Origin: an uncultured Candidatus Saccharibacteria bacterium
GTDB taxonomy: Bacteria > Patescibacteriota > Saccharimonadia > Saccharimonadales > AWTP1-31
Direction: 5' to 3'
DNA length: 64,000 bases
Assembly: GCA_964536985.1 (NCBI GenBank)
Contig: CAZIBG010000004.1
Span: forward strand, 3,595-67,594
Made by a program: the position numbers and the translations under genes. Shown in pieces: positions 1,615 to 25,213 of this stretch (its first letter is position 1; every line of letters starts with the position of its first letter). The notes under the pieces were generated by a model. That model made no database searches, had not been told where the DNA came from, and was given only the letters and a program-made list of their open reading frames with translations.

Positions 1615-1637
1615 AAAAACGCCGGGTGATCCGGCGT
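1615..1637 (-). terminator. intrinsic terminator-like hairpin 30 nt upstream of the hisS start
   Basis: Minus strand reads ACGCCGG-atcac-CCGGCGT followed by TTTT(AT): a 7-bp GC-rich stem, a 5-nt loop and a U-tract. No minus-strand gene lies upstream for it to terminate, so it sits in the hisS leader. Confidence 0.6.
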
Positions 1638-1665
1638 CTGATTGTTTGTTTAGGACAAAGAGAAA

Positions 1666-1722
1666 CTAACCGATCAACTCCGGCAAAATATGGATATGAT
1701 GGTTAGTATTTTCAAATAACAT
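1666..1722 (-). promoter_or_regulatory. putative hisS leader-peptide ORF (18 codons, His-codon cluster)
   Basis: Minus strand ATG TTA TTT GAA AAT ACT AAC CAT CAT ATC CAT ATT TTG CCG GAG TTG ATC GGT TAG encodes MLFENTNHHIHILPELIG. Three His codons fall in a 4-codon window, and the stop is 28 nt before the terminator hairpin. Confidence 0.45.
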
Positions 1723-1728
1723 AACTAT

Positions 1729-1757
1729 TTTATATCATATCGGATGTTGTCTTACAA
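1729..1757 (-). promoter_or_regulatory. candidate sigma70-type promoter for the hisS leader
   Basis: Minus strand TTGTAA (1757-1752), a 17-nt spacer, then TATAAA (1734-1729). The -10 ends 6 nt before the leader-ORF ATG. Confidence 0.4.
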
Positions 1758-16460: not shown

Positions 16461-17630
16461 CTAAGCCTCTTTTGAGTCTTCGCCGTGCTCTTCGATGGCA
16501 TCAAGTAGGCTGCTTTCGAGCTGTTCCTTGCGCTTAATTTTCGGTGCAGCTTTAGGCTCGGCGTTTTGCTGTGGTGCTTCTTGAGCTTTTGGTTCTTCAG
16601 GTGTGATATCAATGTCGTAACCGGTAAGTTTGCTTGCTAAGCGTACGTTCTGGCCACCTTTTCCGATAGCAACACTCAGTTGGTCTTCTGGGACGACAAC
16701 AGTTGCCTTCTTTTCTTCTTCACGAAGAGTAACCTTAGTTACCTTCGTTGGGTTTAGGGCATTGGTGATGTACGTGATTGGGTCGGCATCAAAGACGATG
16801 ATGTCGATCTTTTCCTGCTCGCCGATTTCGCTCATGACCGCGTTTACACGGGTACCGTGGCCCCCGACAAAGGTTCCGACTGGGTCTACACCTTGAATGC
16901 TGCTAGAAACAGCGATTTTACTGCGGACGCCTGCCTCGCGGGCAATGTTCTCGATTTTTACTGAACCATTATCCATTTCGGGTACTTCGTTGCGGAAAAG
17001 GTGCTCGACAAATGTAGCATTTCCGCGGCTGACGACAAGTTGAGGTCCACGGAAGCCGCGCTCTACGTCCTTGAGGAAAACTTTGAGGCGTTGGCCTGGG
17101 TAGTAACGCTCACCCTGGATTTGCTCGCTTTTAGGCATAATACCCTGAGCTTTACCTAGATCTATGCGGACAATCATGCCTTCGACACGAGAAACTAAAC
17201 CGTTAATCACAGTTCCGATTTTGTCGTCGTATTCGGCCATAACGATTTCGCGCTCAGCTTCACGAAGTCGCTGCAAGATAACTTGTTTAGCGGTCTGAGC
17301 AGCAACACGTCCAAAGTCCTCAACTTTTTCGTGGATTTCTACCATCTCACCGATAGCTGCATTCTTGCGGATGACTTGCGCTTGTCCCAGTTCGATCTCG
17401 AAGTTTGGATCACCAACACGCTCAACAACTTCTTTGCTGACGTAAGCGTCAACATCACCATTGTTAAGATTCATAGTAACGCGTACTTCTTGTTCGCGAT
17501 CTCCGTAGTCACGGCGATAAGCAGCAGCAAGTGCTTGCTCAACAATCTCTTGGACGGCCTCTTCTGGTAAGTTCTTTTCTTCAGCAATAGTCTTAACTGC
17601 TACAGCCAAACCTTTCATATCTAGTTCCAT
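16461..17630 (-). CDS. nusA: transcription termination/antitermination factor NusA
   Basis: 389 aa with an N-terminal RNAP-binding domain, S1 and two KH domains (GKGGQNVRLASKLTGYDIDI), and an acidic/Lys-rich tail. AAGGAG lies 8 nt upstream. Confidence 0.9.
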   Translation of the reverse strand: MELDMKGLAVAVKTIAEEKNLPEEAVQEIVEQALAAAYRRDYGDREQEVRVTMNLNNGDVDAYVSKEVVERVGDPNFEIELGQAQVIRKNAAIGEMVEIHEKVEDFGRVAAQTAKQVILQRLREAEREIVMAEYDDKIGTVINGLVSRVEGMIVRIDLGKAQGIMPKSEQIQGERYYPGQRLKVFLKDVERGFRGPQLVVSRGNATFVEHLFRNEVPEMDNGSVKIENIAREAGVRSKIAVSSSIQGVDPVGTFVGGHGTRVNAVMSEIGEQEKIDIIVFDADPITYITNALNPTKVTKVTLREEEKKATVVVPEDQLSVAIGKGGQNVRLASKLTGYDIDITPEEPKAQEAPQQNAEPKAAPKIKRKEQLESSLLDAIEEHGEDSKEA

Positions 17631-17655: not shown

Positions 17656-17681
17656 AAAAAATCCGACCTGGAATGGCCGGA
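17656..17681 (-). terminator. intrinsic terminator-like hairpin within the nusA leader
   Basis: Minus strand TCCGGCC-attcca-GGTCGGA followed by TTTTTT: 7 bp including one G-U pair. It lies 25 nt upstream of the nusA ATG and begins about 6-8 nt after the predicted transcription start. Confidence 0.55.
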
Positions 17682-22960: not shown

Positions 22961-23434
22961 CTAGTTATCGGACATCGACGACTGTAAAGAACCTTGTATG
23001 CTTGACTGATTAGTCTCTTGAGGATTTGGTGCGTCTTCCGGAAATGTGCTGAAACTAATTGCTGCAAGAATTGGAACCAAAATGACTGCTCGAATCCTGA
23101 TGGCATTTTCCCCGACGTGTCGTAAACGAGCTGATGCCAAAGGATCGTTTAGGAGGCCAACGGTCGTTTGGATTTCTTCACTCTTTTTACGCATTCTAAG
23201 CACATTTAGGGCATCAATAGCAAATATTGCCTTGTTGTCATAGTTATCGATTTCAGGCTGTGCATGTAGCTGATCAAGCTGACGCTTAACGCTTCTATGT
23301 TGCCGGTAGATGCGAGGGTCAAAGGCTCCATTGACACGATTCGCAGCTTTAACCTCATCTGTTGTTAATGCTCTTTCCTGTTCTGGCTTAACTGGCGTGA
23401 TTTTATTGGCAATACCTGTAAATAAAGTAATCAT
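22961..23434 (-). CDS. hypothetical protein with one C-proximal hydrophobic helix
   Basis: 157 aa. GGAG lies 5 nt upstream. The hydrophobic segment is AVILVPILAAISFS and the C-terminus is Ser/Gln-rich. No family recognised. Confidence 0.5.
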   Translation of the reverse strand: MITLFTGIANKITPVKPEQERALTTDEVKAANRVNGAFDPRIYRQHRSVKRQLDQLHAQPEIDNYDNKAIFAIDALNVLRMRKKSEEIQTTVGLLNDPLASARLRHVGENAIRIRAVILVPILAAISFSTFPEDAPNPQETNQSSIQGSLQSSMSDN

Positions 23435-23608
23435 GCTTGCTCCGTTTTAGATAGTATCCAGAGCAAAGGTGTGCAATTCTCGGTTTCGCCATTAGCTCTA
23501 CTTAGACAAGGCGACCAAATATAGTCTAAGTTTCAGGGCTGCAATTGCTCTGTTATGAGTATATTAACATAAGTAGATAGAATTGTCAATTATAACTATG
23601 GTTAGGAC

Positions 23609-25213
23609 CTACCCTAAAACACGGAAGACTTCTTCGACAGTTGTTTGACCATCAAGTAACTTAAGAAGTGCATTGTGCAACATGGTGAGCATCCCTCCCT
23701 GAACGGCTGCGTGCTCAAGAAGTTGCGTAGTGATTTGTCCACTCGGTTGAGATAGCAGATTACGTAATGGCTCACTCATGATCATTTGTTCTCGCAAGGC
23801 TATTTGCCCACTAAAACCAAAAGGATTTTCGGCAGAAGTACCTGGCTTATACAGCGTAATTCCCTGAAGATTAGGCTTTTGAACTGTCGGGGGTAGAGTG
23901 TCGACAATTTGCTGTAGTTGCTGGATTGTTTCTGGAGTTGGCTGATAAGCAATCTTTGTCTTGTCGTCCAATCTACGAACCAAACGTTGTGCCATAATCA
24001 TGCGGATAGCTGAGGTGAAGAGCGGGTTTTGGCCAATGATGTCAACCATTCTGGTCAGAGCCGCCGCAGACGAACTTGCGTGAAAGGTCGACAGCACCAA
24101 GTGACCAGTTAGCGAGGCCTGTAATGCGGTCTTTGCGGTATCGTTATCCCTGATCTCTCCGACCATTACTACATCTGGATCGAGACGGAGTACGGCCCTG
24201 AGGTTATTGGCAAAGTGAGATTCCTCGTTAGACTTACTGGTCACAGAAACCTGCGTAATACCTGCGAACTGGTATTCTACGGGGTCTTCGATTGTAATAA
24301 TCTTACGAGTATCACTATTCAGTGTGTTTAAGATGGAATAGAGTGTCGTTGTTTTACCGGATCCTGTGGGTCCCACGGCTAAGACAAGTCCACTGGGCTT
24401 CCGAATAATGTCATCAACGATCTTCCGCTCCGCAGGGTTAAGGCCGAGACGATCTAGGCTATACATATCGGCCTGCATATTGAAAAGACGCATAACGATA
24501 TCCATACCATTTATGGCAGGTACCGTTTCGACACGCAGGTTCATATCGACTGTGGACTCGTCGGCCATCTTAATCTTTTGAGTGATGTGTCCCTGCTGCG
24601 CTTGATCTGCAGAAGTAGAAACGTTAGCTGCACTAGCAATAGCTGCCGTAAGCATTCGGCTTCGTTCGGCACTAATACTGGCTATTGGGTGGAGCACTCC
24701 ATCTATACGGAAACGTATGCGGACGCTCTCTTTTTGATTCTCTACATGGATGTCGGATGCCTGTAGTTTGTGGGCCTGACTAGTGAGGTAGGCCAGCATG
24801 TCATCTGCTTTAACTTGCTCTAGAGTCGCAGAAACGGTTTGAACTAATGTTGAAGAAGACCCTTCGGTTATCTTTATGTCTTGGTAGACAACCTGTTTTG
24901 GTGGGTCGTACAATTTCATGTAATCTTGGTAGCCGGTGTCCGATATCAAACTATAGGTAACTCTTTGGTCGAGGAACCTATTGGTCAGGTTGGTCATGGT
25001 CTGTTGGGACGTGGTGGTAGTAATACCGAATTTGATAGCACCTTTAGATTCAATTAAAGGAATCACGCGCAGTGAGTACAATTCTTCTAGGGGCAACAAC
25101 TCTTTAAAAAGTGGCTTGGGGTCGTTATTGTAGGTATTGGTATAGCTCAGGCCCAGTAGCGTCGCCCGTCTAGCAGTATTTTGTTCTTCCGTTTCTCGGA
25201 TATCTTGAGTCAT
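23609..25213 (-). CDS. pilB: GspE/PilB-family type II/IV secretion (type IV pilus assembly) ATPase
   Basis: 534 aa. It has an N-terminal T2SSE_N-like region, Walker A GPTGSGKTTT, the Asp box IITIEDPVE, Walker B VVMVGEIRD and the His box LTGHLVLSTFH. Confidence 0.85.
   Translation of the reverse strand: MTQDIRETEEQNTARRATLLGLSYTNTYNNDPKPLFKELLPLEELYSLRVIPLIESKGAIKFGITTTTSQQTMTNLTNRFLDQRVTYSLISDTGYQDYMKLYDPPKQVVYQDIKITEGSSSTLVQTVSATLEQVKADDMLAYLTSQAHKLQASDIHVENQKESVRIRFRIDGVLHPIASISAERSRMLTAAIASAANVSTSADQAQQGHITQKIKMADESTVDMNLRVETVPAINGMDIVMRLFNMQADMYSLDRLGLNPAERKIVDDIIRKPSGLVLAVGPTGSGKTTTLYSILNTLNSDTRKIITIEDPVEYQFAGITQVSVTSKSNEESHFANNLRAVLRLDPDVVMVGEIRDNDTAKTALQASLTGHLVLSTFHASSSAAALTRMVDIIGQNPLFTSAIRMIMAQRLVRRLDDKTKIAYQPTPETIQQLQQIVDTLPPTVQKPNLQGITLYKPGTSAENPFGFSGQIALREQMIMSEPLRNLLSQPSGQITTQLLEHAAVQGGMLTMLHNALLKLLDGQTTVEEVFRVLG

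Follow-up and report, generated by a model that had tools for sequence, protein, structure and literature searches.

A conserved histidine-codon leader preceding hisS in Candidatus Saccharibacteria, a probable ribosome-mediated transcription attenuator

Immediately upstream of hisS, the gene coding for histidyl-tRNA synthetase, an uncultured Candidatus Saccharibacteria bacterium carries a short open reading frame (ORF) containing histidine codons, followed by an intrinsic terminator. The locus lies on a stretch of 64,000 nucleotides (nt) of contig CAZIBG010000004.1 (assembly GCA_964536985.1), hereafter the window, and a first-pass annotation made from its letters alone had proposed that these elements constitute a candidate attenuator. 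Our comparative and structural analysis indicates that the element very probably functions as a ribosome-mediated, histidine-responsive transcription attenuator, i.e., a hisL-like leader, controlling hisS in Saccharibacteria. Every prediction of the first-pass annotation amenable to a computational test held. Patescibacteria, also referred to as the Candidate Phyla Radiation (CPR), are episymbionts of very small cell size, for the most part uncultured, and little is known of how they regulate their genes. The literature that we searched describes no attenuation, leader peptide or amino-acid-sensing cis-regulator for Saccharibacteria or the CPR.

The anatomy of the locus is summarized in Table 1, all coordinates of the leader and of hisS being those of the minus strand of the window. 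Re-reading of the sequence matched the previously described elements base for base, from the TTGTAA hexamer through the hisS ATG. The leader ORF reads ATG TTA TTT GAA AAT ACT AAC CAT CAT ATC CAT ATT TTG CCG GAG TTG ATC GGT TAG. It is preceded by a putative promoter, P1, whose -35-like hexamer has TTGCAA-type counterparts at the same spacing in relatives such as L060 and L050. The core of the downstream hairpin, ACGCCGG (1637-1631), atcac and CCGGCGT (1625-1619), lies 28 nt past the leader ORF, and its T-run ends at 1615. A terminator scan detected this hairpin independently, with 9 pairs including 6 GC pairs, followed by TTATATTC. The 156-nt leader has a folding energy of -37.7 kcal/mol (z = -4.26), and none of 200 shuffled sequences folded as well. 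The adjacent upstream feature is a divergent plus-strand ORF (1818-2498) coding for a membrane-like protein of 226 amino acids (aa), and the nearest minus-strand gene, a tRNA-Leu, possesses its own terminator. The leader hairpin therefore serves no upstream gene, as had been claimed from the outset. The tRNA-Leu is found directly upstream of the His leader in L025, L038 and L058; in the window the divergent ORF intervenes.

Table 1. Features of the hisS leader locus in the window
Feature	Position	Strand	Remarks
-35-like hexamer TTGTAA of leader promoter P1	1757-1752	-	Read directly; 17-nt spacer to the -10 box
-10 box TATAAA of P1	1734-1729	-	Read directly; 6 nt (atagtt) to the leader ATG at 1722-1720
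Leader ORF, 18 codons + TAG	1722-1666	-	Encodes MLFENTNHHIHILPELIG, then stop
His codons CAT CAT (1701-1696), ATC, CAT (1692-1690)	1701-1690	-	Leader codons 8, 9 and 11, of which codon 11 is invariant
5' strand of helix P0, ACUAACC	1707-1701	-	Pairs with GGUUAGU (1671-1665) in the minimum-free-energy fold
Region 1, GCCGG	1684-1680	-	Pairing partner of region 2 or region 4
Region 2, AGUUGAUCGG	1679-1670	-	Reaches 1665 with UUAGU; 5' strand of the putative antiterminator; contains the leader stop codon and the 3' strand of P0
Intrinsic terminator, GACGCCGG-aucac-CCGGCGUU overlapping UUUUU	1638-1615	-	-13.6 kcal/mol; left arm and loop, region 3; right arm, region 4
TATAAT, probable -10 box of second hisS promoter P2	1599-1594	-	Between the terminator and hisS
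Shine-Dalgarno sequence AGGAG of hisS	1593-1589	-	Read directly; 4 nt before the ATG
hisS, histidyl-tRNA synthetase, 435 aa	1584..277	-	ORF starts 30 nt past the terminator; putatively regulated gene
tRNA-Leu	2629-2545	-	Nearest minus-strand gene upstream; own terminator at 2536-2518

Relatives of the window were sampled as 80 hisS loci from metagenome-assembled genomes of Candidatus Saccharibacteria/Saccharimonadales, retrieved by means of the HisS protein (54-82% identity). The full two-hairpin arrangement (CAYCAT..CATAT..GCCGG, a second GC-rich hairpin and a T-run) occurs directly 5' of hisS in ten of these loci. A covariance model trained on the window and nine of the ten gave matches at E<1e-4 in 26 of the 81 sources searched (80 hisS loci and the window), and sixteen loci outside the training set scored 36-90 bits. 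The model identified a single copy in the 64-kb window, with no second attenuator of this type; its score of 91.6 bits (E about 1e-17) is partly circular since the window sequence belongs to the training set. A metagenome scan using an exact pattern yielded 57 further contigs from soil, rhizosphere, groundwater and sludge. Overall, about 80 conserved copies score between 36 and 92 bits. Preservation of the His codons and of the hairpin in relatives, on which the first-pass annotation had staked its proposal, is borne out: the last His codon is present in 26 of 26 genome copies and the terminator hairpin in 74 of 74 unique copies.

The association of the element with hisS and his genes is exclusive: every covariance-model match precedes hisS and shares its strand. 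The distance to hisS is 0.6-2.9 kb in 16 loci, where intervening genes encode HisG, PRA-PH (hisE), PRA-CH (hisI) and histidinol dehydrogenase (hisD), besides SLOG, HAD, PfkB and DUF6282 proteins and products that belong to no known family. Among the metagenome contigs, hisS was found downstream on the same strand in all 37 of those extending for at least about 1.8 kb, either adjacent to the leader or following his genes or genes for an M15 dipeptidase, an S66 LD-carboxypeptidase, a GATase or a GNAT protein. Another insert preceding hisS pairs a conserved 220-aa unknown protein, without any Pfam match, with an AstE/AspA-family deacylase. The upstream neighbours vary among copies (tRNA-Leu, a divergent gene, others), and the leader core is near-identical in the window and in L001 despite unrelated flanks. 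Because the upstream neighbours differ while the downstream linkage is constant, the element travels with the histidine-related genes. As judged from gene order, the link of the leader to histidine is stronger than was known when the element was first described, the leader preceding hisG, hisE, hisI, hisD and then hisS in many relatives.

Statistics on the leader ORF were compiled from 74 unique copies, taking as start the ATG that adjoins the -10 box; the first in-frame ATG is farther upstream in L024, L001 and L026. An ATG-initiated ORF runs through the invariant His codon in 72 of the 74 copies, the other two frames offering one in only 1 and 2 copies. Distances from the ATG to the His codon are 27, 30, 33 or 42 nt, meaning that length differences come in 3-nt steps. 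The predicted peptide is usually 18 aa long, M-x4-6-(T/S)-N-Q-H-H-(L/V)-H-I-(L/S)-P-E-x-x-G-stop, with TNQHHLHILPERxG-stop as the typical form after M-x4-6. Its conserved C-terminal part overlaps the RNA pairing segments GCCGGAG and CGGUUAG. At least two His codons are present in 71 of the 72 ORFs (three in 47 copies, two in 18 and four in 6), encoded 173 times by CAT and 23 times by CAC. The last one is CAT in 25 of the 26 genome-derived copies and CAC in L058, and is always located 5 nt before GCCGG. The TAG stop codon follows 8 codons after it in 67 of 74 copies. Metagenome contig L130 (168-276, aligned with 1612-1720 of the window) encodes an identical HisS protein and has near-identical flanks; in its leader the first His codon is changed synonymously from CAT to CAC, and the T-run contains an inserted C. 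Substitutions between these two sequences cluster tightly and are confined to leader codons 3-6 (FENT to LIVT). Shorter variants, L052 (2879-2973) and L054 (2890-2994), carry one hairpin right after the His codons, and L073 (2852-2955) is a decayed or atypical copy with mutations in GCCGG, CGGTTAG and the terminator (E 0.71).

The position of the promoter relative to the ORF suggests a leaderless mode of initiation. Of the 72 copies, 53 have a -10-like hexamer, most commonly TATAAT, whose distance to the leader ATG is 5-9 nt (mostly 6-8 nt), versus 9.9% of all ATGs in the same loci (binomial tail about 1e-37, for copies that are not phylogenetically independent). When ATGs were picked solely by their distance of 5-9 nt from a good -10 box, 39 of 40 fell in the His frame. 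Given this spacing, the transcript should start at or beside the AUG. Translation of the leader ORF from a leaderless or near-leaderless messenger RNA (mRNA), suggested earlier from the window alone, is thus supported by the patterns seen across the copies. The -10 box is missing in the three loci in which the leader comes right after the tRNA-Leu, L038 carrying AGGAG instead.

At the RNA level, the terminator hairpin and T-run are present in 74 of 74 unique copies at -11 to -26 kcal/mol (mean -15.5). Pairing is maintained in 98.3% of cells across 75 distinct sequences, with 4 pairs changed on both sides. Region 1 has an invariant GCC, its last two bases varying in a few copies, and forms a weak hairpin with region 2 (90% of cells paired). 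A further duplex, P0 (ACUAACC:GGUUAGU), encloses the His codons, with its 5' strand just before them and its 3' strand around the stop codon. A duplex of this type at -8 kcal/mol or better is available in 56 of 74 copies, versus 17% of shuffled controls, and L021 displays a compensatory variant (UUGGCCG:CGGCCAG). Only 54% of P0 cells are paired when counted by alignment column. Since the terminator loops and the ACUAACC strand (the latter by one codon) are out of register between copies, column counting was dropped for P0 and the antiterminator in favour of alignment-free duplex tests comparing cognate with non-cognate or shuffled partners.

Those tests single out the interaction between regions 2 and 3. 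The complementarity of region 2 tracks the species-specific terminator loop, of which 49 distinct versions occur. When duplexes of each region 2 with the region 3 of its own copy and of every other copy were compared without any alignment, the cognate duplexes of the 26 genome-derived copies averaged -11.3 kcal/mol against -7.5 kcal/mol for non-cognate ones, with a median rank of 2.5 of 26. For the 74 copies, the values were -10.4 versus -8.0 kcal/mol. Permutations reaching the observed mean numbered 0 of 20,000 to 0 of 100,000 (p below 1e-5). Co-varying partners are exemplified by L005 (CUAAUCGG/CCGAUUAG), L029 (GCAAGCCGG/CCGGUUUGC) and L079 (AUGAACC/GGUUCAU). The co-varying pairing is the very one that the first-pass annotation had drawn between UGAUCGG and CCGGAUCA, which spans the left arm and loop: its cognate duplexes beat the non-cognate ones in a comparison that 0 of 100,000 permutations equalled. 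As far as sequence comparison can tell, the region 2:3 pairing appears mutually exclusive with the terminator and under selection. A plain terminator does not need this pairing.

We folded the leader with different segments masked to mimic ribosome positions, a geometry that relies on assumed footprint sizes. To mimic a stall, the RNA was masked through region 1 (last His codon in the A site, with about 10 nt protected downstream) and the transcript was truncated at the terminator loop. Region 2 then pairs with 4-7 of the 7 innermost nt of the left arm in the minimum-free-energy fold of every genome-derived copy (26 of 26); the energy of this fold is -9.1 kcal/mol in the window. In the naked full-length RNA, region 4 is paired beside the U-run in every one of the 26 copies, its partner being region 3 in 14 of them and region 1 in the other 12. 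In those 12 copies a long 1:4 plus 2:3 hairpin forms. As region 4 is always paired in naked RNA, termination would be the default along either folding path. With a ribosome placed at the UAG of long-form copies, region 2 is covered, the left arm is free and the terminator forms.

Taken as a working model, these elements would fit the 1:2/2:3/3:4 logic of the trp and his attenuators. P1 (TTGTAA-17-TATAAA) would start a leaderless transcript at or beside the AUG of the 18-codon ORF. In naked RNA, region 2 would be sequestered by helix P0 and by 1:2 pairing, and a ribosome reaching the UAG located inside region 2 would cover it. In both cases region 2 would be unavailable, the terminator (3:4 plus UUUUU) would form and a transcript of about 108 nt would be released. 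When charged tRNA-His is scarce, the ribosome would stall once its A site is occupied by the last, invariant His codon, its footprint reaching through GCCGG (region 1) and leaving region 2 free. Region 2 would then capture the emerging left arm and loop of the terminator, region 4 would be left partnerless and RNA polymerase would read into hisS. A basal promoter, P2, would probably provide a constitutive level of hisS expression, to which the attenuator would add an inducible one.

P2 did not figure in the earlier description of the locus. All 19 hisS-adjacent copies inspected have a strong -10-like box downstream of the terminator, 7-30 nt ahead of the hisS ATG; it reads TATAAT in the window and TGnTACAAT, TAGAAT or TAAAAT elsewhere. 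The same box also precedes hisS where the leader lies farther upstream. Where biosynthetic genes directly follow the terminator, inspection by eye, without scoring, revealed no box of similar clarity. hisS is an essential gene, and together with the conserved box this makes a basal promoter of its own probable. In several copies, e.g., TAGAATactggaaATG, the P2 box is only 7-9 nt from the hisS ATG. This short distance suggests that hisS itself is perhaps leaderless, or nearly so, in this lineage.

Several observations weigh against attenuation. As predicted from its box, P2 could allow hisS to be transcribed independently of the leader, which would weaken the leader as the sole control of hisS but not as an attenuator. 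Energetically, the terminator outcompetes the antiterminator at equilibrium in the window (-17.8 versus -9.1 kcal/mol), and it prevails in 23 of 26 copies even when the full transcript is folded with region 1 masked. Read-through would consequently have to be kinetic, as is the case for the trp leader, and since equilibrium folding gives no support, the case for the antiterminator is built on co-variation and the co-transcriptional intermediate. If the ribosome stalls at the first His codon, region 1 stays free and the RNA can still adopt a terminator-competent fold; masking of region 1 requires a stall at the last, invariant His codon, hence this codon seems to be the decisive one. In four short-form copies, where the UAG is two codons past the last His codon, stalled and terminating ribosomes are poorly discriminated. 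Individual copies deviate as well: the ATG of L016 (2861-2961) is out of the His frame, L013 (1384-1488) has no start codon in that frame, the ORF of L052 runs through the hairpin and L054 has one His codon only. Finally, the metagenome set was chosen with a pattern that fixes CATA, GCCGGA, CGGTTAG and CGCCGG, and the sequences are phylogenetically related, p-values thus overstating their independence.

It could be argued that P1, the ORF and the terminator make up a self-contained unit producing a peptide or a short RNA, with hisS expressed from P2 only. The well-conserved peptide sequence, the stability of the terminator at equilibrium and the strong -10 box found in 19 of 19 hisS-adjacent copies are compatible with such a small gene. 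We regard it as improbable, as it leaves unexplained the constant co-orientation of the unit upstream of hisS or his operons (37 of 37 contigs) amid differing upstream neighbours, why the His codons are the conserved ones and why region 2 co-varies with the terminator loop. Moreover, the RNA pairing segments GCCGGAG and CGGUUAG fall in the stretch that encodes the conserved C-terminal part of the peptide, and a similarly clear -10 box was not noticed after the terminator ahead of his biosynthesis genes (judged by eye, not scored). A sensor operating without ribosomes, in which the leader binds uncharged tRNA-His (in a T-box-like manner, with CAU as specifier), a protein or histidine and the ORF is incidental, is suggested by the T-boxes that typically control hisS in Firmicutes (PMC2965389) and by the conservation of the nt around CAUA...GCCGG despite an early stop (CAU AGA UAG CCGG) in L016, L018, L020 and L079. 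This too is unlikely, and distinctly so, given that the ATG frame, the -10-to-ATG spacing, the 3-nt steps and the synonymous CAT/CAC changes all point to translation. The distance from the start to the T-run is only about 108 nt, and inspection of the window leader by eye, not a systematic search, showed no UGGN bulge that could pair with an NCCA 3' end. The claim that the locus lacks a T-box also stands, with zero T-box matches at the gathering score or at E<=10.

The Rfam comparisons extend this result. No family reached its gathering score at the element in the window, and neither T-box (RF00230) nor His_leader (RF00514) nor any other family matched at E<=10 within 1500-1900. In fifteen element-carrying loci, likewise, neither His_leader nor another family matched the element, for which Rfam 15 has no model, and no T-box was found in the loci of 35 relatives, including twenty without the element. 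An identity as sroD was considered and rejected (22.5 bits versus a gathering score of 50), the match covering only the generic CGCCGG hairpin. As for a fortuitous arrangement, or the terminator of a neighbouring gene, short ORFs and hairpins are indeed common in AT-rich intergenic DNA and the palindromic hairpin also reads as a weak plus-strand terminator. Yet no plus-strand gene ends at the hairpin, the minus-strand tRNA-Leu has its own terminator and the fold z-score is -4.26. The roughly 80 conserved copies at 36-92 bits in our view already refute this explanation, to which we assign next to no probability.

Among known systems, the His leader of Saccharibacteria is closest in logic to hisL, the his attenuator of Enterobacteria (RF00514), and closest in target to the His leaders of the Bacillus cereus group and Firmicutes and to pheM-pheST. 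It shares with hisL a short His-codon leader ORF, alternative hairpins, an antiterminator overlapping an intrinsic terminator and, as proposed here, the sensing of charged tRNA-His through ribosome position; in relatives it likewise precedes hisG, hisD, hisI and hisE. Unlike hisL, which has seven His codons in a row, it has 2-4 interspersed ones (H-H-x-H), does not match RF00514 and is much shorter (about 108 nt), with an apparently leaderless ORF lacking a Shine-Dalgarno sequence, and the window copy would control hisS alone. The pheM-pheST leader of the proteobacterium E. coli is a leader-peptide attenuator with Phe codons in an ORF led by a Shine-Dalgarno sequence. It has no sequence relation to our element, but it likewise controls an aminoacyl-tRNA synthetase gene, and in both instances the enzyme made charges the sensed tRNA, which would constitute a homeostatic loop.

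In the Bacillus cereus group, a hisS paralogue and hisZ are preceded by predicted His leader peptides (Naville & Gautheret 2010, PMC2965389); the leaders of Firmicutes His attenuators are described as having runs of three to five consecutive His codons (PMC9413887). According to what these descriptions give, a His-codon leader peptide and a terminator likewise precede a hisS-family gene there, replacing the usual Gram-positive T-box. On the same descriptive basis, the systems differ by phylum and by target, here the only hisS seen at these loci and not a paralogue. Firmicutes hisS T-boxes share the regulated gene, the terminator/antiterminator output and, as proposed here, uncharged tRNA-His as the signal; our leader differs from them in having no Stem I, specifier loop or T-box sequence and presumably uses the translating ribosome as sensor. 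In mycobacteria, leaderless polycysteine short ORFs are Cys-responsive attenuators (bioRxiv 10.1101/834739). They too are located at the 5' end of leaderless mRNAs and contain codons of the sensed amino acid, but they belong to Actinobacteria and respond to Cys rather than His. The Saccharibacteria element combines a canonical intrinsic terminator with an antiterminator that co-varies. By its sequence features, this element would depart from the classical examples in its phylum, its leaderless ORF, its interspersed His codons and its control of hisS, alone or with his genes and peptidases.

Of the his pathway, only fragments (hisG, hisE, hisI, hisD, GATase) are found under the His leader in relatives, along with genes for peptidases, a deacylase and SLOG, HAD or GNAT proteins. 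Such leader-to-hisS inserts occur in L074, L050/L104, L060, L002/L124, L098, L096, L118, L106 and L083/L086/L133. These genes may constitute a histidine-scavenging regulon. Going further, we give about even chances to the view that the leader is a lineage-wide, histidine-specific regulon switch of Saccharibacteria. Under it, a leaderless attenuator of about 108 nt would sense the charging of the cell's own tRNA-His and switch on hisS and, in many species, part of the his pathway together with enzymes that cleave peptides or acyl-amino acids (M15 dipeptidase, S66 LD-carboxypeptidase, AstE/AspA-family deacylase), as the histidine-scavenging response of a host-dependent episymbiont. If true, Patescibacteria would have to couple transcription tightly to translation and initiate at a 5'-terminal AUG. 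hisS together with his fragments and peptidases forms a candidate histidine-starvation regulon, offering a handle on how these cells cope with their dependence on host amino acids.

Conceptually, a His attenuator in Saccharibacteria would be a further instance of a textbook mechanism rather than a new one, and is unsurprising in principle. It would nonetheless be a broadly conserved regulatory element in a phylum for which almost none is known. Its conservation suggests that these reduced cells monitor the charging of tRNA-His and probably couple transcription with translation, and their regulatory ORFs appear to use leaderless initiation. In practical terms, the covariance model could serve to annotate about 80 or more loci, replacing 'hypothetical small ORF' labels.

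Two other putative regulatory features were observed in the window. The only other terminator located in a 5' leader is found at 17663-17680 on the minus strand (CCGGCC-attcca-GGTCGG, then ATTTTTT), 33 nt before a nusA-like ORF (17630..16461, minus strand). A TATAAT lies about 14 nt upstream and there is no codon-biased ORF; this hairpin might be an autoregulatory leader terminator of NusA. A c-di-GMP-II riboswitch match (23469-23552, minus strand) narrowly exceeds its gathering score (55.1 versus 53.5 bits) and sits between two minus-strand ORFs, one for a GspE/PilB-like ATPase (25213..23609) and one of 157 aa (23434..22961).

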